A stretch of DNA of 64,000 nucleotides from Candidatus Omnitrophota bacterium. Its GTDB lineage: Bacteria; Omnitrophota; Gorgyraeia; Gygaellales; Profunditerraquicolaceae. The notes under the pieces were generated by a model. It was not told the origin of the DNA. It searched no databases and worked only from the letters and a program-made list of their open reading frames with translations. The stretch is from contig JAUYBI010000071.1 in the NCBI GenBank assembly GCA_030693145.1, positions 10,354 through 74,353 of the forward strand, written 5' to 3'. Shown here piece by piece: positions 1,342 to 41,600 of the stretch (within the stretch, counting starts at the first letter, position 1; every line of letters begins with the position of its first letter). A program made the position numbers and the translations under genes.

Positions 1342-1509
1342 ATGCGCAAGAAAAAGGGCCAGAGTATCTTGGAGTATGTGATTGTATTAACGGTGATAAT
1401 TGTTGCGGTTGCCGTAGCGGCAAAGACCTTTATCGCCCAAGGAGTGAATAAGGGTTTAGAGGATGCAAAGAAGACGATTGAGTACGCCACAGGGCAATTA
1501 CCAAAGTAA
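1342..1509 (+). CDS. Flp-family prepilin (paralog 3, 55 aa)
   Basis: Strong SD AAAGGAGGAGAG (1326-1337). Protein MRKKKGQSILEYVIVLTVIIVAVAVAAKTF... with G-Q-S-x-x-E-Y motif. Confidence 0.65.
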   Translation: MRKKKGQSILEYVIVLTVIIVAVAVAAKTFIAQGVNKGLEDAKKTIEYATGQLPK

Positions 1510-1532
1510 ATTTTTTAGAGGAGGTGAAAAAG

Positions 1533-1889: not shown

Positions 1890-1903
1890 GGAGGTGAACA
1901 AAG

Positions 1904-6377: not shown

Positions 6378-6379
6378 AT

Positions 6380-8388: not shown

Positions 8389-8668
8389 GAGTGTAAATAG
8401 AAAAGGTGCAAAAGGTAAACTTAGAGTAATCTAAGGACACAAAGCCACGGATCCTAAAATCAAGAAATAGTGTCAAGGACAGCCGGGTTGCCAGTACCGA
8501 CGAAAGTTGGAGCTGACAACTCATTTTTTATTTAAGAACTTAATAAAAAATTTTAAAAACGTTTTAGTAATCTGTAACCTTATGCAAAGAAGCTTCATTA
8601 AAAAAATGAAAAGTCTTGGGGTAAGGGGAAGTATTTATTTTTTATTTAATACTACAGGTAAGTAAAAA

Positions 8669-17600: not shown

Positions 17601-20600
17601 AAGTGCCTTTGGGTAAAGTTACTCTTTCTGAAATATATCAGAATTACGATATCGCTAAGCTTAATGGATTATCGACGATTAAAAATATTCCTCAGATTGG
17701 ACTTTTAGCTGATTATGACTTTGATAATTTACCTATGGATATTTCGGATACTTTAGCGAAATCTGCGCCGATTATTTTACCCAAAACAATCACTCAGGGG
17801 ATAATTAATAATCTTGGGTTATCTGAAAATGAAGCTAAGTTAGTCTTAGGGGGAAGCAGGCCATTAATCGTAGTAAAAAATCAGGATAAATTTACTATTT
17901 TTGAAGCAGGCGGCATCAAAAGAGAAAACATAGATAACGCCGATTTATTTGATCTTGTAAAACCTATTACAACGAATGAATTTCTCAGCCAAGGCATGGA
18001 AAAGAAATTTGTTCAAACCTATACCGATTTAATACCAGAGGTGGAGTATAGAGAAGATTTAGGATATACAGAAAAAATGGGTAAAAAGTTATTTGATAAA
18101 GCGATTAAAGATATGCATTTGTCTGATATTTACAAATTCTATGCAGATACAAAGGATATTTCTACCCTAAAGACAGAAGAAGTGATTTTTAAACAATTTG
18201 GAAGAGAAATAAGAAGAAATTTTGGTTTCAATCCTGATATTTGGACAATAAAAATGGCATTAGATAAAAAACAAACAGGTTGCGTTACCGATACGCAATT
18301 TGCGGCTTTATTGGCAAATACAGTTAATATGCCCGTAGAGTATCAGAGAATAGAGGGCTTATCCAGGCCGCATTTCGTACCCATTATAAAATTTGCTGAC
18401 GGCAACAAAAAAATAGTAGATTTTACACCTTATTTAGATGAAACAAAAGTTTCATTTATCAGCAAGCCCATAGATATAGAAAATGATTTTGAAAGATTAT
18501 CCGGCAGTTTTAATCAATACCGGCTCAAATTAGGAATAGATACGGCAGATAGCTACTTAGATGCCCAAAGAGAGTTAAGAAATTTGCCTAATACCGGCCT
18601 TACTGCCGCTATCTATGGAAATATGGGAATGCATGATGATAATTTAAAACATTTATTTAAAGCTCTTGAATACGACCCCCAGTATCATCAAATTAAAGAT
18701 AAATTAGAAAGAGAAGGATTTATTATTCCTGTTGAATATAATGGTAACCAATATCTAATCGACAAAGAAATCGCTTCTAATGAAGTATTAAAGAAACAAC
18801 TTGCGCAGATTCCTTTACCTGAACGCAACATAATCTTAGACAAAAATAGCCTGATAGGAAATAACGGTAATAGTATTACAGAGGGTGTGGTGCGTAAAGG
18901 TGGAGTTCTTTACCTTAATTCAAAGATTTTAACTGATGATAATAAAGAAATTTTATTTCAAGCTTTAGAGTATGGTCTTAACGGAATAAATCCTGAGAAG
19001 GGCGTTGTCCATATTCTTAAAGCAGCCAAAGTTACTAAGCTGAAAGATAATGGCATTGGTTCCGGTGTTCCTTCTTTAGAAAGAATGTTTACATACTTTA
19101 AAGATAACGGTCACGGTCTCTCTGAAGAAGTAATTAACGATGCGGCGATATTTATCGGAGAAAAGCTAAAATCCGAGGAAATAGAAGCAATAATTAATGC
19201 TTGGCCAACTGACGGCGGCAAAGGGGTGGTGGATAGAAGCAGAGTAGAAGAAGCAGCTAAGTTTTTAGCTGGCCGGATTGCAGACTATGGATTAGGATTA
19301 CTGGCGCAACGGGCTGTAGAGGAAGCAATGGCCGATGCGAAAAAATTATTATATTCTGAGAATGAGATAAAGGAAGCGTTAGAATATTTGAATGCTCAAA
19401 AGGAAGCGGTTGAGAATATGTTTGTCTTGAATAATAAGCTTCGGGAGGAGTTTAATACTCTCGATCTAAAAGATTACGCTAAATTATTAGAACAACATAA
19501 GCAGCTGCAAAGAGAAGTTAATCCGGGGATGGAAAATATCATAAAAATCAAGATCGAAGCCGCGATATTAGATGAAATAATGAAACTTCTGGCGGCCCCA
19601 ATTGAGCAGGTTGCATTGATAGCCGGTAAAGCAGAGAATTCTGTTTTTTACGCAGATGAGCTTATAAAAGTTAGTACAACGCAGGCAAGGAATACAGGTT
19701 ATTCAATTTCAGGAAAAGAAGAGGATGCGCTTATTTCGCGCATTGTTGATTTGCGGAATGAAGAAAGAAATTATATTTTATTACATAACCATCCATTTGG
19801 CGTAGATGTGGAAAATTCAGGTTCGGATAAAGAGCAGATAGAAAATTTCGCGGCATTTATAAGCGTTATAGGAAACAATAAAGCGCCTCTATCTTGGCTT
19901 GCGGCTCAACGTTTGGATAAGGAAGGCAATTGGGAATACATTCCGTTTACTATAACAGATAATGGTAGGCCAATGCCGCTTGAAGCAGTAGAAAAGCGGT
20001 TTGGTAAGGCAATTAGCTATTATCCCGGATTGATTGAACATTTCACTAGTCATATTGTGGCTGGTAAATTAAGCAAATTGATAATAGATAAAGCTAATCA
20101 GCCGGCAGAAACGGATTCTGGCGAGCCTGTACGTGGGCAATCTCCAGCGCTTCCTCCTATTACACCAAACATACCTATGTCACCGTCTTTACGAGATGGC
20201 GGGGCGCAGCGGGTTCCGTTTGGCTTATTTAATAATAAAATAACTACCATATTGCCACAATTGGCGGCTCGGATTGGTGAACTTCCTGGTATTACTTTGA
20301 GCAAATGTTATGGCAGCGTTAATCCCAGGGGCCCGCCTGCTGGTTCCACGACTGACTCTTTAGTTGTAAATGTAAGTAGTGTAGCAAGTGTAGTAAGAAA
20401 CGCAGTTGGTTTAGTTGGAAAACTGTCAGGTGCCCAGAGTGTTGACTCCAGAAATGGAGCAAGAGGGCAGGATGCAGAAGGTGCGTCCAACAGTAATATA
20501 GGTAAGAGAAGTGGAGTAAGTTCAATAGGAACCAATGGTGAGGCAAAAGGTGCCGAAACCCGAGGTTCTATTCGTGCGTATGGCTTCCGCAATAAGATTA

Positions 20601-23600
20601 TTAATGATTTAAAGAAGTTAATCCTCATTCCTCAGTTCAAAAATCCGACAATTCCTGAATTAAATCAATTTATTAGCGCAATATTAAGGGATGGCTCTTG
20701 GCCTTCTGCGAGAGCAGAAGTTCTGGCCCCCAAGAGCACCCTTAATACAAATAATTATTCGCAGGATGGGGGATTATTCAAAAATGGCGATATTCTTAAA
20801 GAAATTAATGAATTAGTTAAAGTAATGGCTAAAGATATTGGTATAGAACGAATGAAAAAGGGAATCAATACTATAGAAGATACTATAGAAGACAAGTATT
20901 CCGAGCAGAATGAGGATATACAAACGATACTAACAGGAAAAGCAGTGGCGAAAATTATCGCAGATAAAGGGATTTTGTCTGTGGAGAATATTAATAAAGA
21001 AGGTTTAGAGATTGATGATGAATTTTGGGCTAAGTTGGAAACATATAAGAGGATATTGTCTGGGTTAAGTGATTCAGGATTGGACGCGGAGAAGAAAAAG
21101 GCTAAAGCTGGTGATAAGTTGGCTGGAAAGTTGGTTAGAATTATTGAAGGCATAAGAGGATTAACATATGAAGAAAAGATAGAGATAATAAAGGGAATGA
21201 TAAAAGATACACCATGGAAAGAAAGAATAAGAAAATTGATAAGTCTCTTGCCGTTAGAATTAAAAGAAGTTTTGATAAGAGAAGTGCCGGGTGAGGACAT
21301 GTCGAAGGTCGAGAGGGTTTTAGAGGAGCGTCCGTATAATGGGAATACTGAGCAAATATATAAAATTCTTGAAGAACTCAGAGAAGGACAGAAAAAAATT
21401 GTAGCGAAAGTAGATAGAAACGAAGCTAGGCTTGATGAAACTGAAGAGGCACTAGAAGATGTAAAACAAGAAGCAGGAGCAGCAAAACAAGAAGCAGTAA
21501 GAGTTAAAGAAGCAACTACGTTATTAGGTGCAGAGGTAGCTAAAACTAAGGCAATGGCGCTCGATGCACGTAGACATGCAGTAGGAACAGGGGATGATTG
21601 TTTGGTTGGCGCGGTTAAAGATCCAAATGTCAGAAGAGAAGCAGATAGAAATCTTCGCATAGAGGCTGGTGTTGATGAATTTGTTCCCTATGTGGTTAAG
21701 TATTTATATACTGGTATGAAGATAATCAGGCAAGATTATGATAAGTTTATTGAAAAATATAGGACTGAAGGGAACTGGAAGAAGGTAGAAACTTTAAAAC
21801 AGGAAAAATTGACCGTAGTGAAAGTAAGAGAAGAAAATAAAGCGATTGAATTGCTTTCAAAATATTCTGGAAGAATAAGCATAATAGTTCAAAAGTCTCA
21901 AGATCTACTGCATGTTTATCAGGTAACAGGTTATAACTCTGAGACTAGAATGATTTCATACTCTGAGGATAATGGAGAAGGCCATAATGTTGGATATGGA
22001 GAGATTGCTTTGGATGAAATCACTAAGATCTACGGCGAATATGTGTTTGTTTTAGAGGAAGGGGTAGTTAATGAGGCAGGATTAAAAGCAAATGTATTAA
22101 CTGAGAAAGAGCAGAAAGCAATTAAGAACGTTGGTGGAGCTGGTGTGGATGCCAACAACAATAACGGTAGCGTCACAAGCAACAGTGCAAGCAATAGCGT
22201 AAATAACAATACTGGTAATACAAATAGTAATAACAGCGATACTAATAGCAATGATAATACTAATAATGGCAATAGCAACAATGGCAACGGCAATACTGGC
22301 AATACAAATAACGGTAATGGTAACACTGGTAATACAAATAATGGCAAAGGTGGTAATGGCGCAGCAGGCAATGGGGTAGCTGGGGTTGCGGCGTCGCCTG
22401 CGGCTCCTCGCGGAGCAACCGGAACAGTAATAATAGGGAATGTGGAAGGTCTTTCTTCTGTTCTCAAAATAAGTAATGGCCTTAGCCCTCCGGAAGCTAT
22501 ATTCGTCGAACTTGCCAATACCTTCCGCAGTTTAGCTAACCAGTTAGAATCAAGATTGCTTCGCCCCTTCGGGGCTCGCAATGACACCCATAATACTAAT
22601 GACACTGCCGATCTTCGTAATGCAATAGATGTCCTTAATAATTCCGCCAGCGCCTCAGAGAATTTGTTTGGTTTGATGGATAAAGCAGTCCGCCGCGATG
22701 AGGACGATGTTATCACAGCTCTCCTTAAGAAACTCATGGGGGCGATTAAAACCCGCGGCCTCAAGGACCTGAATGGACGTTATTTCCGCGCCGCCCGCTT
22801 AATCGCGCACAGATACGGGCTTCCTTATTCTTCAATGGTCGAGCTTGCCGCCGCCTTTATGTTACTTAATGAAACAGATGATTTTATCCGAGCGCTAAAA
22901 GATGAGGCTGATGTGAGAGCTGAAGTATTAAAGGCTAAAGAAGGCGAGATTGCTTCGCTCACTGCGTTCGCTCGCAATGACGGGTTAGTGGTGACGAATA
23001 ATGCAGCAGCTTATGATTTATTGAATAATGTATTAGATATCTTGAATAATTCTGCAGCTAGATACGCATCAGACGGAGGGTTAGCAATAAATGCGATAAG
23101 GATTTGGCTTGAGGAGGTTCGGGCGGGCATAAGAAGCATAGTTGATATGGCGGCAAGCGTATTTAGGGTGATTAGCGGGTTCTTATTGCGAGTTGCGCAG
23201 CGTAGAGGTAATGACGCCTTACCGGATTCTAAGAGTTTGCCGGGCGAAAATAATAATGAAAACGCTTTCTTGCCGGCTCAAGATGGTAACTTAAAAAATA
23301 CTTTAGTTGAATTGGCAAGCCGCCTATTTGGTTCAGGCCGCGGATTAATCGCGGATTTACAAGGCGCAAAAGATGTTGATTCACAGAGAGTTGTGGATAC
23401 AAATAAACTTGTTTCAGCGATAATGGTTATAATCGGCACATCTTTGGTTATTATATCCCAGGCTCCTCCATTGGTTATGATTGCGTATTTAGTAATTGCA
23501 ATTAACCAATTAGCCACGGGAGGAGAAAATGTTAACGATTATAAAAATTCAAGAGATGAGAGAACAGATGGCGGAATTAGAAAACCAGTACCGCATTCGG

Positions 23601-26600
23601 CGTTTACAGGAATTCCGGCAGGCGGCAGCTTTGGAGATGCTGAATTTGAGAAGTATTTTAACAGAAAATCCGAACAATTAAGCCGTCTTTATATAGAATC
23701 AAATAATCCGGCCAAGCTTGGCGCACGCCTAGTGCGCGGCCAGTCTGCGCAGCTTGCAAATGCCCATCAAACCGACGGCGGCGCAAGAGAGCCTTTAGCA
23801 GGATTGGTAGAGGTTTTGAGAGTAAAAGATTTATTGGCTACAATTAAAGCCCGCGCGCAGAATGGAAAGAATCTTAATGGGCGTGTTTATGTTGGCGGTG
23901 TTTGTCGAGATAATATAGAACAAAGGCCACTACCGAAATTAAGATTACTGTTAAAGCAGCTAACAAAGTTCCTGACATTTTATCAATCTCCTTCCTTATC
24001 AGAATCTGGACGAATAAGCAAGCCCATTATTAACGAACCTAATAAACCTATAACAATTAAAACTTTAATTAGAATTGTAAGCTTAATAAAATCCGCTGCT
24101 ACTAATGCAGCAAGCAGAACTTTGGAAAAATCAAGTAAAGTTTGGGAAAGGGCTTTAAGTTTACTTTTAGAAAGAAACATCATCACAATCTTTCTATCAT
24201 ATATTAATAATTCTGTCAATACTATAAATTTTGGCACTAAAAAGAGACAGGGCCAGGAAACGGTTAAATACCAAGCCTGCGACGGCGGCGCATTTAGCAG
24301 GATGGGTTCATTCCCTGTAGGTTTACCATTTACAAGGTCCACAACGCTTCCCGTAGAACTACCTATTTCTTTACCGGTTTCTCAGGATGGTGGGAATAAT
24401 GTTAATTTAACTAAATTGGCAGCACAGGCATTCAGTTTAGATCATCGCGGTTTCATTGTTTCTGTAAGAAGAGTCTTAGGCGGTATTTCCAAATCTGAAG
24501 TAAAAGATGCTCAATCGCTACCGATAGCCCAGACAAACATTAAGAAGTCAATTTTCTCATTAGCTCCTCCGGTTAATGGCTTGATTTCGCGTTTGGTAAG
24601 CGTAATTAACCAATTAGCCACGGGAGGACAAAATGATAAGCATAGACAGAATTCAGGAGATGAGAGAGCAGATGGCAGAGCTGGAAAATCAGTACCGAAT
24701 CCGAAGATTGCAGGAATTCAGGACGGCGGCAGCAGTGGAAATGTTGAATTTAAGGAGTATTTTAACAGAAAACCCGAACAATTAACCAGCCGTCTTTATA
24801 TAGAATTAAAAAATCTAGCTAATCTTGACGCATACTCTGGGCTTAGTCCGCCTGCGCAGCTTGTAATTGCCTTAATAGCTGCAGTGGTATTTGGCCTTTC
24901 CGCTTTAACCCATCAAACCGTAATAAATTCCATATATTCCACTTTAAAATCCAGGGGACGGTTCTGTTTTTTACCATTAAGTTCAGAAAACAGAACCGTC
25001 CCCGTGTTTTTGATATTAACTTTAACCACTACTTCACAAAAAGGAGGTGAATCATGTCACCCATTAAGCTCGAAGGCATCAGGATCCACCACATCATTGA
25101 CTCCACAAAAGATTATTCAACTTTTGCTGCAGCTCGTGAACACGGTAGTAACAAGATTAGGATCTTCCTGGTTAAAGATTCAGGCTCTGTCTATGCGCAT
25201 ACTGGACAGGAAGACACATGGAAGGAGATTGTCGGATCGGTCGCCGCCTACATCAGGTATTCCATCAGCCAAGCCCGACAATATGTTCCCGTCTACAAAG
25301 TCAATACAGCCTACGCTACAAACTAAAGCCGGTTTCTACGCTGCAACAAAGAATATTGTGATTTCTATTATCGCGTTGTTCTTTGTTGCGGCGCAGCCGG
25401 CAGCTGCGGCGGAAGGCTCGAAATTATCAGAGATGGTTCTTTTTGGAGGGGCTATATTTTTAATAGCAGCAATAATATTCGGTTTATTCCTCGCGTTTTC
25501 GATAAAGATGGGTATTCAAAAAGCAGAAAAAGCTATTGAAGAATATGGGAATAATACCCGGAGGATCGAAGATAGTGTTATAGCTAACCAAGTGATTGAA
25601 GCTTCAGCGATACATATAGAATCTACAGCAACGTTAAAATCTCCTCCGAATGCGTTATGGGTTTTAGAAAAGCTAACTTATCTTGGATCCGGAATTATTA
25701 CTCTATATTTTCCGATCTTTGGATTCATTAGGTTATCCTCTTGGATGATTGGTATCGGATATGTTTTCCTTATAGTGGGCGGTATAATAATTATACATCA
25801 TCTTGGTATGATGAAGAATAAAGCTAAAGGCATGAAAGTAGCGGGAGAAAGAACTCCTGCACAGATAGTTACAAATAATGGCCTTTATAGATGGATTCGC
25901 CATCCGCTTTATTTAGGGCAAATGATATCAGTAATTGGGTTTGTTTTAGCCTACACTAATTTATTTGCTTTACCTTTAAATATAATTTGGTTCTATTTAG
26001 TGAATAAATTGGCTTCTGCGGAAGAGGATTATTTGGTTAGCGTGGCTCCTGGTTATGCGGGTTATAAGCAACGGACAGGTAAATATATATATATACCAGG
26101 GTTTTTAGCAAAAAATAACGATAGTGAAAAAGAAGCAGTAAATAGTGATAATCTGTTTGATGGAGGGACTCTTATCGCTTTGGAAGCGGTATTAAGCGTT
26201 ATAATAATAGATCAACTTCTAAAATATATTGCCACCAAACGTTTACTTCCGCATTCTGAATATATTGATAAGGGTTTGAACTCTGATGGTTCATATCGCA
26301 GTAGAGGAACGACCGAAATTTATTATAATGAAGAGGCAAAAATTAAACTAATTGGACGGCTTGCACTTGTTAATGTAAGGCATAGTTCTGGCTCAAAAAC
26401 AGATAATATCGCCGTTGTTAAAATTGGTATTCTTGCTTCTTTGTTTGTGTTGTACGGCGCCTATTTTTCTGGTAACACTGCCTTGACTGTAATTTTTGTT
26501 TTAGCTGCTGGGGGATTCTTCGCTACCATCGTTGATATAATTAAATCAAAGTTTAGAGGAGCAATAGATCCGTTTATGTATGGAGGTACCTTTAATAATG

Positions 26601-29600
26601 AGCGGAGATTCGTTTTCTTCAATTTCGCAGATATATGTGTACTTACAGGATTGTTTCGCGCAGATTCCGGGGACGCATTACTTAATTTAAAAGTTGGCTC
26701 ACGGCGCGACGGCGGCAGGGTTCAGGGGGTGTTTGCGGTTTTAGGTGTTGGCGCATTAGGTGTGTTTTTCTTAATTTCCAGCTTGAAAGATTTAATTCTG
26801 ACAGTTTCTGGCGTAAACGGCATTAGCTTGGTATGGGTGGCATTAAAGCTGTTAATGGGCAGCAGCCTTATTTTCTCCAGCTATTCGTTAAATTATCTTA
26901 GGTTAGAGGCGGCAAAAGTAAATGGGCTTGTAACAAAGGGGCCATACAGTTTCTCAAGAACTCCTGTTTACTTGGGGTATATTTTAGCCGGTACTGGTTT
27001 TGCGTTTAGTTTAATTCTCTCCGGGGAGTTATATTCAGTATATTTTGCGGCTAATTCCGCGGCTATAATATATTTATATTTGGGAGTTTATAATGAAGAG
27101 AAAACGCTCGCGAAACAATTTGGAGAAGAGTATAGAAATTATCAAAATTCCGTTCCGAGATGGTTTGCGTTTAAGTTATTTTGGAAGGTGATAGTAAAAA
27201 AAGCTGATATTGACAGCCACCGGTTAACACAAAAAGACGGCGGCGCAGGGGCGTCGATAATTGAAAAGTTGTTAAATGCAATTAAACCCCGCGCGGAGAA
27301 TCTTTATTTGATTGCTTCGAGGTGGGATAATCTTAAATCTATTTCTTCTACTTTCCGCTCTACTTTTATCAATCTTAAATCTATTTCTTCTACTTTCCGC
27401 TCTACTTTTATCAAGCGTAAACCTATTTCAGCAACTTTCTCCCACGTTCTGGCTATGGTAGTTTCAATTCCGTCAATTCTTCTATTAATTGATTTTAGCT
27501 CTTCGCCAAATACCCTAAACTGGCTTCTTAGATCTTCAATGAGCACCGCCACTTCTCCCGCGGTCATTGTGGTTTTATTTTTAGCATTCTTATCCATAGC
27601 AGTAATTATAAGCGACAGAGTGAATTCTGTCAAGAATAATAATTTTACCCTTGAAATTAAGCGCTCTTATGCGATTAATCCAGCCCGCGACGGCGGCACA
27701 GGGACGATGTTACAGAATAAAATTGCAGCTACAAATATGGAACCAGAGGTTAAGCTTATGTTAACACGCAGGGGTTTCTTGGAAATTGGCGCTGGTATTG
27801 TTGGCTTGGGATTAAATCCGGGAATAGGGGGCATTAAAGAATTAGCAAATAAGTTTGCTGGTTTATTGAAAGGCGAAGAAATAGTTGATTTAAATAATCT
27901 TTCTGTTGACAGAGAGGCGTTAAAGCAACACGTAACAAAATTGGCTAATATCGGTACAAGAGCAGCCTATTTTAGAAATACAACTAATATTAACAAGGCT
28001 AAAGATTATATTGTTGGTTGTTTAGAGAAACTGGGATTACAAAGAATACATAATCCAATAGGGAAAGGATATATTTTACAGCAGTTTACAATGCAAGAGA
28101 TTTATGTTTATCCTAGAGACGATTATCCTTATTTAGACTATGAGTTAAAGTCATTAAGAAATCAAGAAAACATATCGTCTGAACAAACATCAGATCAATT
28201 GCTTTCCGTAAAGATAATGTCGTCACTGAAAACATTGCTATCGTTTTTACAAATCCGAAAAGAGGATAAATCACTTTTTGAGCTAAATATGACCATGCTG
28301 AAAGAGGCTGGTATCAAAGTTCCTGGACCATATGGTCCGGTAAAAGTACTTAAGAATGATTTAATCGTTGAGGGCACAAATATTATTGTTAGAATACCCG
28401 GAAGTAAGAATCCTGATAAGAAAGTTATTCTGGGTGCTCATTATGATTGTTTCAAAGGTGTTGGCGCTAATGATAATGCAACCGGGGTTGCTTGTCTTTT
28501 GGAGGCAGCAAGGATTATTTCGAAGTTTAATTTTGACGATACAATAGAGATTATTTTCTTTACCGCAGAAGAGGACGATAGTTTAGGGAGCAGTTTTTAT
28601 TTAAAAGAATTATTTGAAGAAGAAAAGGCCAATATAAAAGGGGTATTTATTGTTGATATGATTGGTAATAATAAAGGAAAAGATGAGCCTGAAGGGGAGG
28701 AAGATCTTAATTTACTGTATGATAGATATAATCCGGAAATATCTAAAAAGCTAATTGAAGAGACTGTAGAAGCTATACAGAAACACGTTTCGGATTTTTC
28801 AGTAACGGCTAATGAAGATGAGGGTTATGATAGTGACGATGACCCATTCCAAAGTGAAAGAATACCTACGATATTGTTTAGCGAAGATACCGGTGAAGAG
28901 CTTACAACTCAGAATGAGTTTTTTAACGGGGCGCAAGACACAATAGAGCATATAGATTTTGAAGGGTTTTTCCCCAAAGCAGTAAAAGCGGTTATAGTTT
29001 CCGTTATCGTACAAAGTAACTCTAATAAAGACGGCGGCGTAATTGGTTCTGCTATTATATTACTGGTTCCTGGCATTTGGAACTCAATGTATATGCAGTT
29101 GATAGGGGTGAATAGGCCTGGCATAGACCGCATCCTGTATGAAACCGGCCCGCCGGAAATTAAGATTGGAGTTATCAAATATTTATTTAATAGATTTAGC
29201 CCTGGCTCAACCAGTGTTTCTCAGCCTACCGTGGCAGGTATTTCCTTTAAAGCCCGCGCGGAGAATCTTTATTTGATTGCTTCGAGGTGGGTTAGCCGTT
29301 TACTGAAATCTTCTTTGATAATTCGTACGTCTTCTTCTATCTTAGCAAGTTTACCGTTCATTCTGGTTAAATCGTCTTTTATCCCCGCTGTCCTTATATT
29401 TAGCGTAGTAATATCTTCCCTGCTCTTTGCCACCATACCCATTGTGCTGTCTAATTTGTCTCTAAGCGCATCTTGGCCTTCACCGAGAAGCTCAATCCCT
29501 GAATGGACCTTTTCGAGGATTACCGCAAATTCCCGATCTTTATCAAATTCTTTGAGTTTCTTTGTCTCTTTCTTCATGCTAAGCAATTCCGGGAACACAT

Positions 29601-32600
29601 TACTTAATTCCCAGCGCGGCGGCGGCGCAGTTTTTATTCTTTTCGGTGTTTATGATGCGTTAGACGGTCAATACAAAACCAAACACCAAAAATCAGCACA
29701 ATTAATAATAGGGTTACTACCGCAGTCATTTCTATTATTTAGTATGATGAGAGTGAAGATGGCGGGGAATCGTGAAAATCCCGATAAGAATAATAAAAAT
29801 CAAACCACCAATCAACATAAACAGCAAACCGTTCATAATTATTCAACTCCTTTATTAAGCATAGTGGCAATGATAAAGGCTGCCATAAAAAACATCAAAC
29901 CTACCATAAATACACTAAGACGAAATTCAATTCCTGAGACGAATTGTCCGATTACTAACGCCGCAAATACTAATTTACCTATATCGTACAAAGATTTAGA
30001 CAATTCCTTTCAATTCTTTCTTATAAAAGATTCTGGGATAAGCAGATCTATTAACAAAGCCAAGAAAGATTCAATGGCGGATAGGGTGATGTTTGCGGGG
30101 GGTAGTAAAGAAGATACCCAAAAGCGCAATAATTATTATTATCAGGAACGTGAAAATCAAGATCATTTATCCTCCGAATTTTTCAATAGCGTTAGAGCCC
30201 AAAACACCAATATCACAGTAACACCCATCCCTAATATGATAGTTAATAATTTAATAAAGAGTTTTTCCCCTGAGAATATGGGATTTAGTATTACAACAGC
30301 AATTAGTAATTTACTTACATCAAATAGAGTTTTTGCTAATTCTTTGGATTGGTTCTCATTTAGCCGCATAGTTAAATATATACTACTAGAAGAGATTGTT
30401 GTCAAGCCAAATTATTTTATAGTAGCAAACGATGGATCTGCGACCGACGGCGGCATACTTAGTTCTGCTATTGTATTAGCGGCTCCGGGTGTTTGGAACT
30501 CAATTTATATGCATTCGATAGAAGGGATCAGGACTGGCGTAGACCTTTTATTATATGAAACCAGTCCGCCGTATACTGTTATTCTTCCTGATGTTTTCCT
30601 CCCAATAGTTTTCGTCTTATTATTATCCGTAATAACAAATTCTAAACTAAATTCAGCAAGATTTAGCCCTGGCTCAACCAGTGTTTCTCAGCCTACCGTG
30701 GCAGGTTGGTTTGTGTTGGCCGGGGCTATTTTATTTGTTACCCAGCCGCTGCTTACCTTAGGGATACTTACCGTGGCAGGTATCTCCTTAATTGGTGCGG
30801 CTATTGTTGTATATGGGGGCTTCGCAGGCATTATTCCTGCCGGGGCCCCCATTGCAACAAGAAAGGGCAGCGTTCCCGCGGTTGCGGATGGGGGAAGAAA
30901 AGTAAATATTGATAAAGTTACGATGACAGGCGATTGGCGGAGCTCAATAGCTAGAGTAGAAGAAATACTTAAATTGGTGGAAGATGCTTGTTATCGCGTA
31001 ATTATGGTAAAACAAGGGAAAGTCGATGCTGATACGATAATAAAGATAAGAGAGAATTACAAGGGAAGAAAACGGGATACAGCTATAGATATGAAGCTGG
31101 GTAAGATAATAATAAATGATAATAGAGAAACATTGCGTATATATAATATTCTGAGTAAACAGCAAAAATTTGTGGATATTTTTAATATTTCTATTAAAGA
31201 AGATGTCCGCGGAGCGGCAGCTCAAACATTTGGAAACCTGGCAAAGGAATTAAATATTCCACTTGAAAAGATCTCAGAAGGGTTGATGGAAAAAGGTGTA
31301 AAATCAGGAGAGTTTGAAACAGCCTTTGTTTTGTTAGAAGAGGCAAAAGACAAAATATTTATCGCGGTACAGGAGATATTAAATATCGATATCAATGAAG
31401 AAGGAGTATATAGCATTGGAAATGAAGGTGATTTTATAGATGCCCAAGGCAGACGCATAGATTTATCTGACTATAAAGTTGTAAGCCATATTCATTATCA
31501 TCCCGGAAGAAAAGACGGATATCCTGTTCCGTCAGCGTTTGATTTGGGTTTATATACGCAGCTATTGTTTAGTAATAATGAATTTATAGGCATTGTTTTT
31601 GGCAACGATACTCAAGATAAGCTTATATCCAAGGCGTTTGTCTTAAAAGACGGCAGAGACCTGGGAAAGTTAAAGCTCGACATAGAGAATTTGCTAGAGG
31701 AGAGGCAACTCTTGGAAGAAAAAGGCGTAACGGAAGCTAACCGTAAAATATTTATTGGTATGTTTGAAATTTTTATCAATGAATATTTCCGCATAATTCA
31801 AACCGAAGATTTTAAGATAAACGAAAATTGCGGAAAAGAAGCCGACGGTGGAGAAATAATAGACCCAGGCACTTATGAAACGGCTCGGAAGATAAACTGG
31901 AATGAATGGTTTTTAAAATATGACGCGGTATTTTTCCTTAATATAGTGACGTTGTTTACCCCTAGGGATGCTAAGGCAATAAGCAAGACTATAGAAAAAC
32001 TTAAGGAATTAAGAAAAATTAATCCCGGTAAGTTTAAAACAGCGTTAGAAGAAAACAAAGATTATATAAGGGGTAAGATTCTTAACAATATGAGGAGTGT
32101 TGCCAAACAGGTAACACATACAGAAGAATGGCTTTTTGGTGACGTGGACGCATTATCATACGATAAATTGGATATGTTAATGGAAGTCTTTCCAGAAGCA
32201 TTTATAGAAGCAACAGAAGAAAGAACCAATAGCGAATTAGTTGGAAACTTTAAACTTGCGACTAAAGGTAAAGAGCTTATGCATAAGGCAACAAATTCTA
32301 TGGGGCAAAGACTATTGGAGCAAGAAAATAAAAATGTAAGATATTTATTGGCTACCTTATTCACAGAGGGCATGGATAAAAAAGAAGAGCTAGATAACAT
32401 TAGAGAAACAATAGCCGCTCTTAGTAGAGCGGATATAGAGGACAATATTTTTGTCTACTTATCTTTATTAATAAATACAAATGTAAATAAAGAGTTAGCC
32501 CCGAAGGTCGCCAGAGCAATAGAAGGTTTCTTAGCCGAGAGGGGGATAAAAGGTAATATTAATCCGGATAGTTTAGTAGCAGAATATAGCAAAATAATAG

Positions 32601-35600
32601 AAAATGGCCGAAGGATAAAGCATATCGCCATTAATTTAGAAGCTGTATTTGGGAAGGATGTTTTAATAATATGGGATAGTTTATATAATTCTTTACAGGG
32701 CAAGAGGCAGTTTCAGATAAGCCGGATAGTGGAAAGTATCAAATCGGGTGTGGGGAGCCTGAGCAAGAAAGGCGCGGTGAATGTTCTGGTTGCTTCCGGT
32801 GATATGTTAGGAGAACAAGGCCACAAACAGATTATCGAACCATTTAACAGGGCATATAATAGCGGCATAGATCTGGATAGTAGAATAAAAGAAGATTTTG
32901 GAGTAACGGAAATAAAAGGTGACAAGGTTATTATAATCCGCGCTGAAGAGAAGAATGTGTTGAATGGGGCGCCCGCCGTAGTGAATATAATAACAGACGG
33001 AGAAATGCCTGTTGGGATTATAGACGCGGTAGTAACCGGCCTGTACGAGCAAGGGGAAAAGAGTTTTATCAAAGGGTTTATGAATCTGTATGAAAACGGA
33101 GCAGAATTAGTATTGGGTTACAAAGTACTTGATATAAATGGCGTAAGGGTAAAATTGAAATACGATAACGAAGAGAAAAAAGAATACCCCGTAATTTACA
33201 TTACTATAAGTATGTACGACGTCGCTAAGATGTTAGAAACAATAGCCGGAAAAAACTGCGCTTTGGACGGCGGTAAGGATTCGCAAGATACGGGTTATCT
33301 ATTGAGTAAAAATGAGGTTCGCGCGGCTACTTTGGCTGGGGTGGGGTTAGTTGTTTTATCCTTTATTCTTTCAGCGTATGGTTTTGAAGATTTAGCAATT
33401 GCCAGCGGAGCGATTGGGTTTATGTTAACTGCTGTCGTAGCGATAACCTGGTTAGCCATTAAAATTAATCCTCAGATTAAAGAGGTTTATTTAGAGGCGC
33501 TGGAAAACGCTAATGAGCCGGTGGCCATATCAACCGTTTCCGGGGAGGAAGAAATTTCTAATACAGTTTTACCAATGGAAACAGAAATGAGAATAGAAGG
33601 GGATATTATTCATCACAATTTCTCTCCCAGCCGGATCGGTGAAAATAAAGCAAACGGGTTAATCACTAAAACAGTTGCAGCAATTGATAAGGTTAACAGC
33701 GCCGCAGGCGTTAATTCTGCATATATGAGCCGCTTAGATATGTTAGCCGGATTATGCCTTTCTAACGGAATTATCGGAGTTTGGTATTTTATTAAATATT
33801 GGAATGCGTATGGAATGGACCCGACCAAGACCTGCGAACAGTTGCTTTTGGGTAAGCAGGTATATGGTTATCCTCACCCGCGGCAAGTCGATATCTGGCT
33901 GGCTTGGAAAGATAACGCGCCCCTGGGTTATGCCGTAGCGTTAGGGCCAGATAAATACCGCCATATAGCTTATGTAGCGGTTGTTCCTGCAATGAGAAAG
34001 CAGGGAGTTGGGCTTAATTTAATGAAAGAGTTTTTTGAATATGCCAGGAGCCAGGGAATCGCAGAGTCATCTTTACATGTTAACGCAGATAATCTAGGGG
34101 CCTTGGGATTATATAGGAAAGCAGGTAGGTTTGCGGATAAAGTAGTAGAAATGGTAAAGGAAACCCCGTCCGGCATTGCTCAAATAAGAATGGAATTTTC
34201 TATTAATCGCGGGAAGGGAGACAACAAGCAGGCTGACGGCGGTTTGCTTAGGGCTGGGCCGGTGTTTAGTGAACGTGCTTGTGGCGATATTGATCGATCC
34301 CCAGCCAAACTAGGATTACGAGAATTATGGCGCTTAGGGTTAAAAGGGCGGTCATATCAATCTTCCTCCAAATTTCCTTTTGGGCAGACAAAAATTGCTC
34401 CTACCACTGAAAGAATCGTTGTTAATATAAAAGCAGTTTTCCACGGCATCGCTGCTTTAAGGAAGGCTTCTGAAATAAATAAAGCAATTACTAATGCCTG
34501 GAATAAATTTATTAAAGCTTTTGCAATTAACCGTCTGCGCGAATCTGTCCAAAATACATCTTCTTTCATTGAAAAAATACTACCATATCTTATTAGAGTT
34601 GTCAATAGCAATAACTTTAGAGATTCTTCGTCGCTGACGCTCTTCAGAATGACGAGGAGAGTAATTGAATTTGACGGCGGCAGAACGATAGTAGATTTTC
34701 TAAAGAAAGTTCCGTTAAAAGTTTGGCTTTTGATTCTCGCGGCTGTTTCACTTTTATTATTCAACGTACCTACGGTAACCGGTGCTTTGGCTGTTCCGGT
34801 TCTGGTGGTGGTGGGGATAACAATTTCCGGGACAACAATCGCGATTTTGGTACTTATAGTAATTATAGGAGTGTTGGCTGTTAAGAAATCTTGGCCTGTC
34901 ATAGCTCACCTTGCGGGTTTTGCTGGGGTATTGTTTGGCGTTTCGAAGTTACCGTTAATATACGCAGCAGCAAGTAATTTTGGTATGTTAGGCGCGTTAG
35001 GGTCATTTGTTGTTTCTACAGGAATAATCGTTGGCGCGATGTTCTTCTTCTTCGCGCTTATTGTAGATTATAAGAAATACGGGAAAGCAGAATTACATTA
35101 TACAGGTAAAGGCATTACTTCTTCCTTAGAAGACTATCAGATGCTTGCTTTGCAGGATATCGCGAAAGAGTATTCAAAAGAGTACTCAAAAAATAGTTTC
35201 AGCACAAAGAAGCTTTATTCGTTATATAAAAATAATCCCCGTTATCTAATAGCTGCGTTTGCGGCTGGTTTTATTATCGCGGCTGGTTTTATATTATTTA
35301 TTCCTACAGTTTTTATTGCAGCTACTATCTTAGAATCGTTGGCGTTAGGCGTATTGTTCCCTTATCTTGCGCATGTATTTCTGGATTTCTTTGGTAAATA
35401 TTCATTCGAGAATTTACATAATGTTGAAAATTTACAAAAGATTAAAGATTCTAAGGAGTTTGAAGAACGAGCTAAAAAATATAAAGGCGAGCTTGAGCGG
35501 GTGCGCAATCCCGAGACAAGGGAAAAAGAAGGAACTACGGATTATAGTGTGTTTATCTACGAATCAAGGATTATTCGCGCTAAGTTAGCCTTTCGCTTCC

Positions 35601-38600
35601 CGCTGGAATTCGGAATTGCCCAATTTTTTACACAGAGGCTCGTTTTCGCAATCGGTTCATTCGTTCTCTCAAGGGCGATAGTGCCTTTGATTATCTCCAA
35701 AGAGACGGCAATGGGCGCGTCTTTAACCACAAGCCTCGCTAATTTACCTTGGGGGATTGGAGCTACTTTAACTGGCTTAGGATTTGCTTTAAGTATAGAA
35801 GGAATTTTAGGTATCCTGATTCTTGCTTTTTTCCTGGGCACATTACGTATTCCTGAAGAGGCAAAGAGCTTGGTTAAAACTTTTCAGAATAAAGGAGGGA
35901 AGATGGGCGAGATTTTTATTACAGCCTGGAGCCCATTAAGCAGGAATGATTTATTCGATAAAAAAACAGACTCTGCAGATTATACGGATTTCAAAATTAA
36001 GATATACACAGTTGTTTTCTTAAGCAAGTTTTTGGCTTTCCTGCCGTTAGCGGTATTTACCGTGTCATTATTTACCGCGCCCTATCTGGCTTTAGTTATT
36101 GGCGTAATTTTGGGGGTCATTCTTTTAAGCAAAAAGATGAAATTAATAAACAATTTTTGGTTAGGTTTTTATTCCTCTCAACTTGAAAATTTACTCCGGA
36201 GCAGCGGAGGCTTATTTATTGTGGCCGGAGAAATTGGGATGGTCGTTGCTTATGGCCAATATATTCCGGTGGTAAGCTTAATTGTCCAAGCATTTGAAGT
36301 GGATGCGTTAAAGTGGGGCAATCAAGTAGTTGAGAATGTTGAGTATCAATCGGGAGTTTCTTTCTCCGGGGAAGTTTATCATACCTTAGGCGGAAAAGAA
36401 GATTTGAACGTTTGGTGGAATGATGTTTATAAAGAAAGAGAACTGCAGGAGAGTAAAGTCTTAAAATCCTCCGAAAGATTATCTCCGATCGCTGCGGTAA
36501 AATTGGAAGCTATGAATAAACAAATAGCCAGTGTTCCAGAAGCTTATTATTTCCAAAAGATAGGCGATGGCAGCCAGGCGGTTAGGGTTTATCCTCCGTT
36601 AAATGATGGGGAAATAATGAACGCAAAAGTTGTGGATGTGAATGGATCGGTTGTTTTTGAGAAAAATTATACGCGCGGGCCGCCGGTGATCTTAACTGTT
36701 GAGCAGCTTGGTTTAGGCAACAAGACTATTCTTGTAAACAATCAGAGTTACAACATCAATTTTACCTCTTTCCCTTCCCCCTTACCTAAAGGATATGAAG
36801 CAGCGGTGGGCTTAGAAGACAAAGACGGCTCATATGTTTGGTTTAATGCTACCGATTATTTCTTCAAAGATGAGTTTCTACCCGACGCAAATACGAATAA
36901 CGCAAAACTGGATAAACTGGTTTTTGATAACGGGCTGAGATTACCCGATAACAGCAGTGTAAAGGGCGTTATAGATATAAATATACCTGATAATAATCAG
37001 ACACTTCGTTATAACTTCGCAAGCGCAAATATAAACGGAAAGCCTGCGAACTCCTCCTACTATATGCCAGGCGAAGCAAATGCCTCTAACAGCCCGCTTG
37101 ATAAATCGAGAATTTATCTAAATGCGGAAGAGTTTGCAAAATTACATTCAAATGAAACCACGGCCAGCGTGAATATGAGCGAAAAAGACATTAGTGCTCA
37201 AGTTGCGAATTTACTTAAGTCAGGGTTTGATAATTTTACGATAGCCGCTGTTACAGAGAAGAACGTAAAGGTGATAGATACGATTATAGAAGAATTGAAC
37301 AAGCCGAGTGCAACGGTTAATGTAGTTAAAACGCCGTCCGGAAGTGAAATTAATAAGTCGATGCCTACTGCAAATGAAACTGAAGTAATTGTAAACGAAA
37401 CCGGCTTAAAGACATTTGTGTCAGATAAGAATACTGTTCGTTATTATCCGGAAATTATTAAGGTTACCGTAAGCTCAACTAATAAAACTGCAGGCGTATA
37501 CGCTAAGGATATAGATAGTTATAAAGGTAAAGATTGGGGATTCTGGTCATTTATCGGGAGATATCTTGACTGGAATGATATAGCAGTTACTTATACTGAT
37601 GCGCTTGGCAATCTAAGGCAGGGCTATGTAAGCGAAGACGCGGACATTAATTATTCTTATGAGGAAGTAGCCGAGTTGCTAACAAAAGAAGAGACGGCTA
37701 AAAACATTACGAACCCGAATGTTACAATTCCTCCAGTCACTGTGCCTAAAGAGTACAATCGAACGAAGATTATACCTGATTTTCCTCGTGAGGGCACAGG
37801 CGGCGGAGGAGGAGGAAACGAACAATTTCAGCCAACGATAGGGTTATCAATTCCGGAATGGTATTTTTATTTCCCCACTACACACAGCGGGTTTGAGCGA
37901 TTTGATTGGACAAACAGCACAAACCTTACCGGCTATCCAAGTGCTAAGGTAGCTTTTTATACGTTATATGTTAGAAACGCAACTACAGGAAGGGATGATT
38001 TGATTTTAAACACCGGGAATAATATTTCAACTATGGATATTTTCCCGGGCATTATATCTGACGGCACGTATGATGTTTCCGTGAGGGCATTGTCCGGGCA
38101 ATGGGCAGCTTCCGGGACAGTGGTAAGTGAAAAGAGCGCTTCTGTAAGAGTAAACGTAACTACTGTTCCCGATCCGGCGCTTAATTTAAATGCCAGTATG
38201 TCAGGCATAAATCTTACTTTCAATGAAATTTTTCCTCCTATGGAAACGTTTATACTTCTTACAAGGTCAGACGGCGTAATTGAGATGATAAATGTTACTG
38301 GCGAGAATCATCATGTATTCTACAATCTGCCTGAGGCCATGCATAATGCTAAGATAGTGGCTATAAACGGGGTTACCAGCCGCGGCAATATCACTGATAA
38401 CAACTTTAATTTTATTTACTCTAATCTGACATGGCCCGATATGCCGGCGAGTAATTCCACCGATGTAAACGGCAGGGCAGTTATTGAATTCCAGAACGGC
38501 ACAAGATTACTTCCCGCAAATATTAAAGAATTATGGGTAAAGGTAACCGGAAGTGAACCCCCGTTCCGAAATATTGGAACCGGCGCATTATCTAATAATG

Positions 38601-41600
38601 GAACGAACGTTACTTTTACTTTTGGGAAGTCTGATAATAATAGAAACGTTACCTTAGAATTTTATGCGCTGAATATGTCAGACGACAGGCAAATCCGTCT
38701 GAGCTCTCCAATAGTGATACCTGATGTAGATTCAGACCCATCGCCATATACTATCCCTGCCATTAGTAATTATTTCCAGAATGGTGGTGGAGATGTTACT
38801 ATCAGGTTAAATCAACTGCTGCCTATTAATATTACAGGCATGGGGATGAATGTTTCCTCTTTAAATAACACCGCTGTAAGTAATTTCTGGACGCTGAATT
38901 TAACCGATGTATATAATGACAGCACAAACAACATTACTCTCAAGCTGGGTGAGAATCCGCAGGTAGCAGGAAGAGAGATAACCTTTGCCTTAACTGGATT
39001 CGATAATATAGGAAAGAAAACTGCGGATAGCGGCGCAGTGCATTTTGATATGATTAATCCTAAGGTAAATATTAGCTTACCGGCAATAACTGGAACTGAT
39101 AAGAGCCAGATAGATTTGGGAGTAGGCCAGAACGCTACGATCAACTTTACCATTACCAACCCGGGAAATTACGCCTCAGTAAGTGATTTGCTTGCCCAGA
39201 ATAATACCTTAGCCTGGGAAAGCCTCACCGGCGCAAACCAGAGCCTGGCTCAGGAAATTGTCAGAACCGGAACCGCCACCATCTGGTATCAAGCAAATAA
39301 AACCGGGAGTACCGAGCATTATACTAACCTGACCTTTAGCGGCATAGATAGCTCAAACTCCATAGCTTTTACGCCAGGGTTTAATGTTACTTATGCTGTG
39401 TATTCAGATGAGGGTTTAACCCGGTTCAGCAGCTTTAATGAGCCAACAACATTCAATATTGCTCTTGGCGGCAACCACACTGTAACCGGCAGCGTGGTTA
39501 ACTTAGCCAATCTCTCGAAAGTCAACGCAATCGACGCTGACCTGTATTATCTGAATAACACCTTAAAACAAGAGAATGCCAGGATCTTCAATACCACTCA
39601 AGCCCAGGCAGGGTTGAATAACGGCCAGTTAACCTTTAGCTATGACGCCAATAACTCCGGCAGCGGCCTGATCTTCGCTAACCTGCGTTCAGTAGATGCC
39701 AACAACACCCGTTCCCCAGTCAGCGCCAACAACTTAACCATCACCTATCCGGAAAGTATTGACCCCGGTTTAACCCGCTTTAGCAGCTTTAACGCCCCGA
39801 CTACTTTTAGCATTAACCTCGGCGCTAACCACACGGTTACCGGCACCGTGGTTAACCCCGCGAATATCTCCAGAGTCCAGGGCATTGACGCGGACTTATA
39901 TTACTTAAACAATACCTTAAAACAGGAAAATGCCCGCATCTTTAACGCCACGCAAGCCCAGGCGGGTTTAGCCTCAAGCAGCCTGACCTTTAGCTATGAT
40001 GCCAACAACAGCGGTCTGATCTTTGCTAACCTGCGTTCTGTCGACGCCAACAACACCCGCTCGCCAGTCAGCGCGAACAACTTAACCATTACTTATCTGG
40101 AAAGTATCGACCCCGGTTTAACCCGCTTCGCCAGCTTTAACGCCCCCACGGCTTTTAGCATTAACCTCGGCGCCAACCACACGGTTACCGGCACAGTAGT
40201 CAACCCTGCGAATATCTCTAAAGTCAACGGCATCGACGCGGACTTATATTATTTAAACAATACCTTAAAACAGGAAAACGCCAGAATCTTTAACGCTACG
40301 CAAGCCCAGGCTGGTTTAGCCGCTAGCAGGCTGACCTTTAGCTATGACGCCAATAACTCCGGCAGCGGTTTGATCTTTGCCAACCTGCGTTCTGTCGACG
40401 CCAACAACACCCGCTCCCCAGTCAGCGCCAACAACTTAACCATCACCTATCCGGAAAGTACTGACCCCGGTTTAACCCGCTTTAGCAGCTTTAACGCCCC
40501 GACTACTTTTAGCATTAACCTCGGCGCTAACCACACGGTCATTGGCACCGTAGCCAACCCCGCGAATATCTCTAAAGTTAACGGCATTGACGCGGACTTA
40601 TATTATTTAAACAATACCTTAAAACAGGAAAACGCCCGCATCTTTAACGCCAGCCAGGCCCAGGCCGGTTTAGCCTCAAGCCGCCTGACCTTTAGCTATG
40701 ATGCCAACAACAGCGGTCTGATCTTCGCCAACCTGCGTTCAGTAGATGCCAACAACACCCGCTCCCCAGTCAGCGCCAACAACTTAACCATCACCTATCC
40801 GGCTACCAATGTTTCAGATACACTCTCTGATACCGTCCTTATGCCTAATATTACTCCTCCTAGCAGTATTACTACTTATGACGGCACTTGGAGATTTAAT
40901 TTCAGTTCTCCGGTGAATGTCTCCGGCACCAAAGAGATTCGTTTTGAAAATGTCACGGTTAACGGCACAGCTGAACCTTATATTTGGATGATGGCCAATG
41001 ATTCAGCAAATGTCAGCCTTATGCTTGGCAAAGGCACAGGCGAATACATTAATGGTACGCTGAACAAAACCTTATACAATAACAAAATCATCCGCGGCCA
41101 ATTCAGGTTTGTGGATCTTAGCGGCCGGTTCACCAATTTAAGCGAATTAGTAGAGATTATCGACCCGGATCCGGTTAATATTACTATTGAGACAAACAGT
41201 TCAACTCAGGTAGCGAATACATCAGCCGCCTCTAACATAACAGAAACAAGCAATAGCTCAATTACCGTTACTACTGCGATGGGTATAGAACAGATGACTA
41301 CAAATACTACTGGCATTATTAAAAGCACAATTATAGATGCTAAGGGCGCGGTTAAAGCAAGTATTGAGAATAATTTAGATGAAGAGACAACTATGGTGCG
41401 TGATAGTAATGGAGTTCTTTTGTATATCGGCGGCGGCTTTGGCGCGCGCACCGTAGCGGCAATCGATAGCGAAAATTCAACCGCTTATTTAACGCGGAAG
41501 GATTTAGTGCGTAATGTTATGTATTTTGAGAAATTTTCTATTGATAAAAACGGAAAGCTTGCTTCTATTCCTGAAGCGAAGATTAATCTTGATGGCACTC

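Follow-up and report, generated by a model that had tools for sequence, protein, structure and literature searches.

Small genes nested out of frame in a giant open reading frame

The DNA analysed here is a 64,000-nucleotide stretch of a Candidatus Omnitrophota assembly (GCA_030693145.1, contig JAUYBI010000071.1; 40% G+C), which we call the window, and its dominant feature is a single plus-strand open reading frame (ORF), the giant ORF, that runs beyond the end of the window. The giant frame (1-based positions equal to 2 modulo 3) has zero stop codons between 8666 and 64000, that is, over 18,445 codons, so the host gene is at least 55 kb long. Inside it lie two paralogous ORFs of 50 amino acids (aa), P1 and P2, and a third small ORF, Q, downstream of P2. 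All three are complete ORFs on the same strand as the giant ORF, each with its own start and stop codon, and are nested wholly within it. The original prediction, made from the sequence of the window alone, had placed the two 50-aa ORFs at 23529-23681 and 24633-24785, and both are present there, in the +1 frame relative to the giant frame. The features needed to follow P1 and P2, including their Shine-Dalgarno (SD) sequences and the anti-SD sequences complementary to them, are as follows.

8669-64000, plus strand: giant ORF (host frame), open from 8666, first ATG at 8669, running past the window end
23462-23764, plus strand: repeat copy 1, comprising the anti-SD, the hairpin, P1 and ~85 nt from the start of the spacer, without Q (by local alignment; repeat families D8 and D12)
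23518-23524, plus strand: SD of P1, GGGAGGA, 4 nt before the ATG, Gly-Gly in the giant frame
23529-23681, plus strand: P1, 50 aa, ATG to TAA, giant frame +1
24563-24871, plus strand: repeat copy 2, with anti-SD, hairpin, P2 and the spacer start
24622-24628, plus strand: SD of P2, GGGAGGA, Gly-Gly in the giant frame
24633-24785, plus strand: P2, 50 aa, ATG to TAA, giant frame +1

P1 and P2 belong to a direct repeat whose copies align without gaps between 23478-23681 and 24582-24785 (81% identity) and, beyond a 3-nt indel, between 23681-23764 and 24788-24871 (75% identity). The repeat is thus ~290 nt long and not the ~200 bp first proposed, and P1 is a partial duplicate that comprises the hairpin, P and the start of the spacer, with no Q after it. 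Several details of the prediction needed correction: the distance from GGGAGGA to the ATG is 4 nt instead of 7, the whole ORFs show 31 substitutions over 153 nt instead of about 20 in 150, and 44/50 residues are identical in the full ORFs, not 48/50, because the first six codons differ. Its central observation, a ratio of 18 synonymous to 2 non-synonymous changes in the P frame, was reproduced over the common 44-codon core (23547-23678). The 23 nucleotide differences in this core fall in 20 codons, and in the P frame 18 of these codons are synonymous and 2 non-synonymous (42/44 residues identical), whereas the giant frame has 0 synonymous and 19 non-synonymous codons (24/43 residues identical). 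Sixteen of the 23 differences are on position 3 of the P codons. When we simulated the divergence 50,000 times with the same numbers of transitions and transversions, two or fewer residue changes occurred in 0 simulations (mean 14.9, minimum 7).

A position-3 pattern could also be produced by RNA structure or by a mutational artefact such as gene conversion between repeats, and not by selection on the P protein. The region does contain conserved RNA hairpins, and the two P copies of a related locus, L002, are identical in DNA, which fits conversion or a recent duplication. However, conversion homogenises sequences and does not sort the leftover differences to the synonymous sites of one frame, the hairpin spans the SD region and not the body of P, and P, in its protein sequence as in its start, stop and length, is kept at 50-70% identity over lineages with saturated synonymous sites. 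We give this explanation next to no credence.

Searches of the window for further P copies (tblastn, blastn and hidden Markov model (HMM) searches over six-frame pieces) returned only P1 and P2. A scan of the giant ORF for ORFs in alternative frames (35 aa or longer, with a strong SD) found only P1, P2, Q and three that look spurious, at 22030-22716 (low-complexity antisense), 37957-38223 (minus strand) and 51846-52142 (within the KGKYGKS repeat). The minus-strand ORFs at 20308-20628 and 23983-24342, as well as the minus-strand gene calls in L002, look like antisense shadows of the giant frame. A six-frame scan of codon-usage log-likelihood was uninformative because stop codons dominate the score, and the giant frame always wins.

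P is a conserved family at the same place in related giant genes

A word-indexed search of 5.8 billion proteins returned four small P proteins of 49-51 aa, an exhaustive HMMER scan of 1.84 billion cluster representatives returned only six, of 48-51 aa, and three more P loci came from scanning metagenome and genome collections with back-translated patterns. The homologue search suggested by the prediction thereby yielded 11 further loci, and the set compared here consists of 14 copies from 12 loci (two in the window, two in L002 and those of L003 to L012) in Omnitrophota metagenome-assembled genomes (MAGs) and metagenome contigs. The named genomes matched by the P cassette (2 loci) are Candidatus Omnitrophota/Omnitrophica MAGs; the window itself holds no marker gene. 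In 14/14 copies P starts with ATG, stops with TAA and has an SD of the GGAGGA type 3-6 nt before its start. P is always +1 relative to a long frame without stops, and in L009 and L012 this frame is open over the whole 20 kb fetched. A copy with a broken P beside a conserved giant frame would have spoken for the opposite assignment of constraint; every copy runs from ATG to TAA with the giant frame open.

Differences among the P copies concentrate on P codon position 3, as in P1 and its L002 counterpart, where position 3 takes 21 of the 27 nucleotide differences and only 2 residues change. Identity ranges from 50 to 100% in the P frame and from 21 to 100% in the giant frame; that of P is never the lower in any pair and is the higher wherever the DNA differs. 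The assignment of the constraint to the P frame is therefore upheld for P1 and P2 and in all comparisons of the set. By this comparison of sequences, P is a real protein family that is nested out of frame and under purifying selection on its amino acids.

A second nested gene, Q, occupies the remaining frame

On the related contigs, a called ORF of ~90 aa located ~220-270 nt 3' of P led us to a second nested gene, Q, which follows P in 12/12 loci and has a single copy in the window by tblastn.

25043-25049, plus strand: SD of Q, GGAGGTG, Gly-Gly in the giant frame
25054-25326, plus strand: Q, 90 aa, giant frame +2

The length of Q varies between 84 and 93 aa across the loci, its SD is 4 nt before the ATG in all of them (GGAGGTG; GGAGGA in L010), and 14 additional called homologues are found on short contigs. 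Between the window and L002, Q differs at 26 nucleotides, 24 of them at position 3 of the Q codons, so that identity is 97% for Q against 70% for the giant frame, and Q-frame identity exceeds giant-frame identity in 36/36 pairs. In a map of the substitutions between the window and L002, the favoured third position moves from the giant frame to that of P and then to that of Q exactly at the ORF limits. Judged from these alignments, Q too is under purifying selection at the amino-acid level. Peptides that represent the two proteins in the window are EQMAELENQYR and QAAALEMLNLR for P, and IFLVK and DSGSVYAHTGQEDTWK for Q.

AlphaFold confidently models P as a single continuous helix (residues 2-46; predicted local distance difference test (pLDDT) 88) and Q as six strands and one helix (pLDDT 83, predicted template modelling score 0.75). 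P is thus modelled as a long helix and Q as a small beta-rich domain. Comparison of P and Q with Pfam, NCBIfam, PADLOC, PHROGs and PDB sequence profiles gave nothing significant; in the PHROGs scan there was no match below E = 0.03, and the weak matches are families of unknown function.

The giant frame is kept open across P and Q

The prediction had also noted that the giant frame remains open over P1 and P2. This is correct and understates the case, for openness is under selection in its own right. When P was recoded with synonymous codons drawn from the codon usage of the genome, the giant frame was free of stops in 0.05-0.6% of the trials, and the same recoding of Q left it free of stops in 0.3-1%, whereas all real P and Q copies have 0 giant-frame stops and 4-10 stops in the remaining frame. 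The distance from the start of P to the start of Q takes the values 370, 385, 388, 400, 403, 409, 412, 421 and 433 nt, all of them 1 modulo 3; the sole exception is L002, in which the interval crosses a 100-N scaffold gap. P is conserved for its sequence while the giant frame is kept stop-free, and therefore both frames are constrained. Breaks of the giant frame in L002, L006 and L011, which might have served as counter-examples, are located on N runs (scaffold gaps), and a giant-frame stop in L007 precedes a GC-rich, probably chimeric segment.

The sequences on either side of the nested genes, and the spacer between them, look different from the overlaps. Just 5' of the cassette, the window and L002 differ 5/3/12 times at giant codon positions 1/2/3, and the residues ..GKSIFSLAPP.. 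are conserved. The spacer has the following properties.

24786-25053, plus strand: P-Q spacer, coding in the giant frame, with hydrophobic segments; 0 stops in the giant frame versus 14 and 4 in the other frames

Its giant-frame motifs VRAPP(AQ) and SQITLTLP are conserved between loci while their codons vary. On this comparative reading, the giant frame codes in the ordinary way in the flanks and the P-Q spacer, and over P and Q it is selected only for openness and register and encodes a hydrophilic linker. The stretch therefore carries three kinds of constraint: on the residues of P and Q, on the readability of the giant frame that they overlap and, elsewhere, on normal giant-frame coding. 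A further stretch, at 20368-20518, shows differences between the window and L002 of 5/14/6 at giant codon positions 1/2/3, in a linker rich in Gly, Ser, Ala and Asn; the excess at position 2 could reflect relaxed selection or a further alternative-frame or antisense constraint.

These data bear on whether the giant frame is translated here at all. P and Q could be ordinary operon genes between two large genes, with the giant frame untranslated and its openness due to chance or to another cause. Gene callers on the related contigs called P and Q and not the long frame, the peptide that the giant frame encodes over P and Q shows little conservation (21-70% identity), and a terminator-like hairpin lies between P and Q, all as this explanation would have it. 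It does not account for the openness, which has a chance of less than 1% per copy for P and Q and is found in every copy while the third frame has its 4-10 stops, nor for spacer length changes that are always multiples of 3. Moreover, the same frame is under normal purifying selection directly upstream, in the spacer and downstream, and all apparent frame breaks in the relatives are N runs or a likely chimeric junction. We regard an untranslated host frame as improbable, and hold with good confidence that P1, P2 and Q are real nested genes within a translated giant frame.

The conserved surroundings also bear on the possibility that P, with or without Q, behaves as a mobile or selfish cassette, which would insert itself in frame into giant genes and, somewhat like an intein or an in-frame insertion element, would have to keep its host open. 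Consistent with this idea, the window and L002 have a local duplication of the P unit, the ORFs are flanked by structured hairpins, and the module content of the region differs between close relatives. However, all loci have the same giant-frame neighbours, ..SIFSLAPP.. upstream and VRAPP and SQITLTLP in the spacer, a sign that the cassette has been inherited vertically at a single site. We saw no recombinase, transposase or target-site duplication, and each 20-kb locus has one full cassette. A mobile origin is, in our view, highly improbable.

A hairpin is predicted to mask the ribosome-binding site of P

Upstream of both P copies in the window, the SD is predicted to pair with an anti-SD sequence that lies in the giant frame, where it reads as Ala-Pro-Pro codons 56-68 nt upstream of the P SD.

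23463-23525, plus strand: P1 hairpin (predicted), in which the basal helix pairs the anti-SD CUCCUCC (23464-23470) with the P1 SD
24565-24628, plus strand: P2 hairpin (predicted), sequestering the P2 SD; anti-SD GCUCCUCC at 24563-24570

At P1 the CUCCUCC sits in GCUCCUCC at 23462-23469. Both hairpins have a minimum free energy (MFE) of -25.9 kcal/mol, with z = -4.9 for P1 and z = -3.35 for P2, and in each case 0/200 shuffled sequences were as stable. CUCCUCC is complementary to the SD GGAGGAG; wherever the anti-SD is present, the MFE fold pairs the two, and z lies between -3.3 and -6.4 in 6/10 hairpins tested, again with 0/200 shuffles as stable. The spelling GCT CCT CC, synonymous positions included, is found in 10/11 P copies in which the position can be read, whereas codon usage predicts it at ~10% per lineage. 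A second Ala-Pro-Pro, 3' of P, varies at its third positions; since the first is fixed in spelling and the second is not, the first is constrained at the nucleotide level. The inner stems of the hairpin differ in sequence from locus to locus and keep their complementarity, as in the pairs GGUUAAUGG/CCAAUUAGCC at P2, GUUAAAGG/CCUUUUAAU in L007 and GUUUGUGC/GCACAAAC in L012. The MAFFT/RNAalifold alignment put the 3' arm of this hairpin in the wrong place, and its pairing was therefore read from per-sequence folds.

The arrangement suggests that initiation at P may depend on ribosomes reading the giant frame. Most likely, the giant mRNA would itself serve for P and Q, with internal initiation of each at its own strong SD and ATG. 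The P site would normally be held in the hairpin by the upstream anti-SD GCUCCUCC within the giant reading frame, and a ribosome on the giant frame would melt the hairpin and leave the site free for a short time. Since the 5' arm lies in the translated giant frame, each passing ribosome would unmask the site only transiently, and the synthesis of P would be tied in time and amount to ribosome passage along the giant gene. In the last and weakest step, the target of P and Q would probably be the giant protein or its mRNA, at the membrane-spanning junction, for example in assembly or processing.

A number of points weigh against this picture as a whole. L006 has no anti-SD, and the hairpins of L005, L009 and L011 are not significantly more stable than shuffled sequences. 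Coupling by an SD-masking hairpin is a model built on predicted folds and is in our estimate slightly short of an even bet. For the production of P and Q the evidence is indirect, namely the strong SD and ATG found in every copy. The loci are few (12) and all metagenomic, several of the contigs have scaffold gaps, and L007 is probably chimeric.

The position of P in the +1 frame, the SD-like element just upstream in the translated frame, as at the RF2 site, and the presence of a hairpin would also fit another route to P, a +1 frameshift of giant-frame ribosomes at GGAGGA that ends at the TAA of P and yields a truncated giant protein with a P tail. In prfB, which encodes RF2, an SD-like element in the upstream frame accompanies the programmed +1 frameshift, and P resembles prfB in its +1 frame and in the SD-like element inside the upstream frame. 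Here, in contrast, the site has no zero-frame stop and no codon that is obviously slippery or hungry. All copies (14/14) keep the ATG at canonical SD spacing, and the residues after it vary in sequence and length, as expected of an independent, true N-terminus. The hairpin is upstream and contains the SD instead of lying downstream of the site, and Q, in the +2 frame, has the identical layout of SD and ATG. A prfB-type frameshift is thus very improbable, and internal initiation remains the route that we favour.

A hairpin with a U-rich tract separates P from Q

The P-Q spacer of every locus, itself part of the giant ORF, contains a hairpin with a U-rich tract on its 3' side.

24954-25014 (stem 24954-25003), plus strand: spacer hairpin, a perfect 17-bp stem GGGGACGGTTCTGTTTT/AAAACAGAACCGTCCCC in the MFE fold

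In the window, the U-rich tract 3' of the 17-bp stem is GTGTTTTTGAT (GUGUUUUUG). In eight loci (L003 and L005-L011) the hairpin has 14 consensus pairs, three of them with compensatory double changes; the stem of the window differs in sequence and is at the same place. From its predicted fold, this element looks like an intrinsic terminator or an RNA-processing (RNase III) site. Rfam at gathering thresholds found no known RNA in the cassette, and there are no tRNAs. A sigma-70 promoter scan of 19-36 kb gave 49 promoters versus 47 expected, which is background, and we therefore claim no internal promoter.

The host gene and its surroundings

The giant ORF has a Pfam order of Peptidase_C39 near the N-terminus (residues 263-371, E = 3e-6, over the Pfam cutoff), PEMT/ICMT, Peptidase_A8, Peptidase_M28, HEAT repeats (HEAT_2, E = 5e-53) and cytidylate kinase. 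As a giant single ORF with an N-terminal C39 domain and with HEAT and enzyme modules, it matches the Archaeovorin-type giant genes of Omnitrophota. Likenesses to Archaeovorin (West-Roberts et al. 2023) include the size, the N-terminal C39, HEAT, peptidase and methyltransferase modules, transmembrane segments and a type II/IV secretion-like locus upstream. Upstream of the giant gene in the window are two T2SSF-family genes (5532-7261, plus strand) and, at 1339-1964 (plus strand), three repeated small gene starts that by eye are putatively Flp/pilin-like (KKGQSxLEY...); both agree with the secretion/pilus locus reported upstream of Omnitrophota giant genes. A c-di-GMP-I-GGC riboswitch (RF03167; cyclic diguanosine monophosphate, c-di-GMP) is located at 8405-8496 (plus strand; 61 bits, above the gathering score), ~170 nt 5' of the giant ATG at 8669, a position that suggests control of the giant gene by c-di-GMP. 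A term search found no mention of this riboswitch in bioRxiv 10.1101/2023.11.21.568195 or in the 2026 Omnitrophota complete-genome preprint (bioRxiv 10.64898/2026.06.07.730766). The latter covers 229 genomes, of which 176 are complete and 53 of high quality.

Downstream of the cassette, at 25300-29030, enzymes that are usually stand-alone membrane or secreted proteins are embedded in the giant ORF: a PEMT/ICMT-like module, a signal peptidase II (Peptidase_A8) and an M28 peptidase, the last preceded by what reads by eye as a signal sequence of its own, MLTRRGFLEIGAG. Each of the three modules lies between Asp-Gly-Gly (DGG) sites encoded by the 9-mer GACGGCGGC, which occurs 10 times on the plus strand, all of them in frame as Asp-Gly-Gly, and 0 times on the minus strand.

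19211, 23774, 24281, 24722, 26708, 27236, 27689, 29030, 30446 and 34673, plus strand: GACGGCGGC sites

A rough estimate from base composition predicts ~0.05 occurrences of this 9-mer per 64 kb, codon usage gives 2.5% for that spelling of DGG, and most of the sites fall between recognisable enzyme modules. These DGG sites could be cleavage sites of the double-glycine type for C39, recombination joints, or both. In every locus the SDs of the nested genes (23519-23524, 24623-24628 and 25043-25048 in the window) likewise encode Gly-Gly in the giant frame, with hydrophobic residues at -4 and -7 in most loci, as in double-glycine leader peptides, and the host protein has its own N-terminal C39 (double-glycine) peptidase domain.

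L002, a close relative (79-94% identity in shared blocks), is without the window segments 25349-30649, which carries the ICMT/PEMT, Peptidase_A8 and M28 modules, and 34242-34672, a deletion with both ends at DGG sites; the module content of the giant gene therefore differs among close relatives. Perfect or near-perfect DNA repeats of 42-48 nt (29192-29239/30659-30706, 27282-27329/29247-29294 and 27329-27412) sit where the giant-frame translation looks non-protein-like, and in L002 one of these repeats also forms the junction. In-frame tandem protein repeats are present as well, with four units of ~350 nt at 39278-40800, five KGKYGKSxKKQEA units of ~50 nt each at 51782-52071 and five helical units of ~200-360 nt each at 57279-58537.

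Discussion

To our knowledge, well-supported genes nested out of frame are rare in bacteria, and most proposed cases come from a single genome. The case made here rests on a comparison of 12 loci, in which ~800 bases appear to serve all three reading frames and carry three constraints: protein sequence in two alternative frames, readability of the host frame, and RNA structure at a ribosome-binding site. Standard gene callers miss either P and Q or the giant ORF, and genome surveys therefore undercount one or the other.

ComS, the 46-aa product of comS in Bacillus subtilis, binds MecA. Its gene appears to be the closest analogue: comS is a small gene wholly inside the very large multi-module ORF srfAB, on the same strand and in another frame, and it is expressed from the host transcript (PMC12915044). 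The likeness is one of layout, a nested small gene on the same strand and out of frame in a very large ORF. There is no sequence relation, and the host here is a giant gene of at least 55 kb and not a nonribosomal peptide synthetase gene. Two nested genes occupy both alternative frames, the SD-sequestering hairpin is conserved, and the arrangement is kept over deeply diverged lineages, whereas comS is confined to one genus. Phages offer further parallels in which a whole out-of-frame ORF lies in or across another gene, such as lambda Rz1 in the +1 frame of Rz and the MS2 lysis gene, which overlaps coat and replicase; in contrast, the host here is cellular, and the PHROGs scan gave no sign of a lysis function. 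In MS2, and likewise in some ribosomal-protein operons, translation of an overlapping or downstream gene needs ribosomes on the upstream gene to open an RNA structure. The stable SD/anti-SD pairing predicted here, with its masking arm within the upstream translated frame, is similar, but the coupling proposed for P would act by melting a hairpin in a continuing ORF and not by termination and reinitiation. By these analogies, the kind of gene, a nested one, is already known, and what would be new is two nested genes in both alternative frames, their deep conservation, the SD-masking hairpin and the giant-gene host.

The earlier work on Archaeovorin asks whether giant genes give one transcript or product or are split, proposes cleavage by the C39 domain, and reports the alignment of 381 peptide fragments, sequenced de novo, with the giant protein of Velamenicoccus archaeovorus LiM (bioRxiv 10.1101/2023.11.21.568195). 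Spectra of V. archaeovorus LiM have been published by Kizina et al. (2022). That study (West-Roberts et al. 2023) and the 2026 preprint both treat the giant ORF as one product, maybe cleaved after translation, and a term search of the two found no mention of nested genes in other frames or of internal ribosome-binding sites.

A more far-reaching proposal is that the P-Q cassette is a conserved control or processing node of Archaeovorin giant genes, in which RNA and protein events are interlocked; we think this unlikely. If it were true, the same bases would mark both a cut in the polyprotein, at positions such as ..INQLATGG|EN.. and ..SQKGG|ES.., and the initiation of P and Q, and the spacer hairpin with its U tract would act as an attenuator that depends on ribosomes or as a site for RNase III. 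At least 40 kb of distal sequence would then be transcribed or intact only during translation of the giant frame, and P and Q would be factors made on site for that step. Apart from that proposal, the cassette places internal initiation sites, a ribosome-binding site predicted to be masked and a hairpin resembling a terminator or processing site ~16 kb into the giant ORF, and it bears on whether the giant genes of Omnitrophota act as one transcript and protein or are split.

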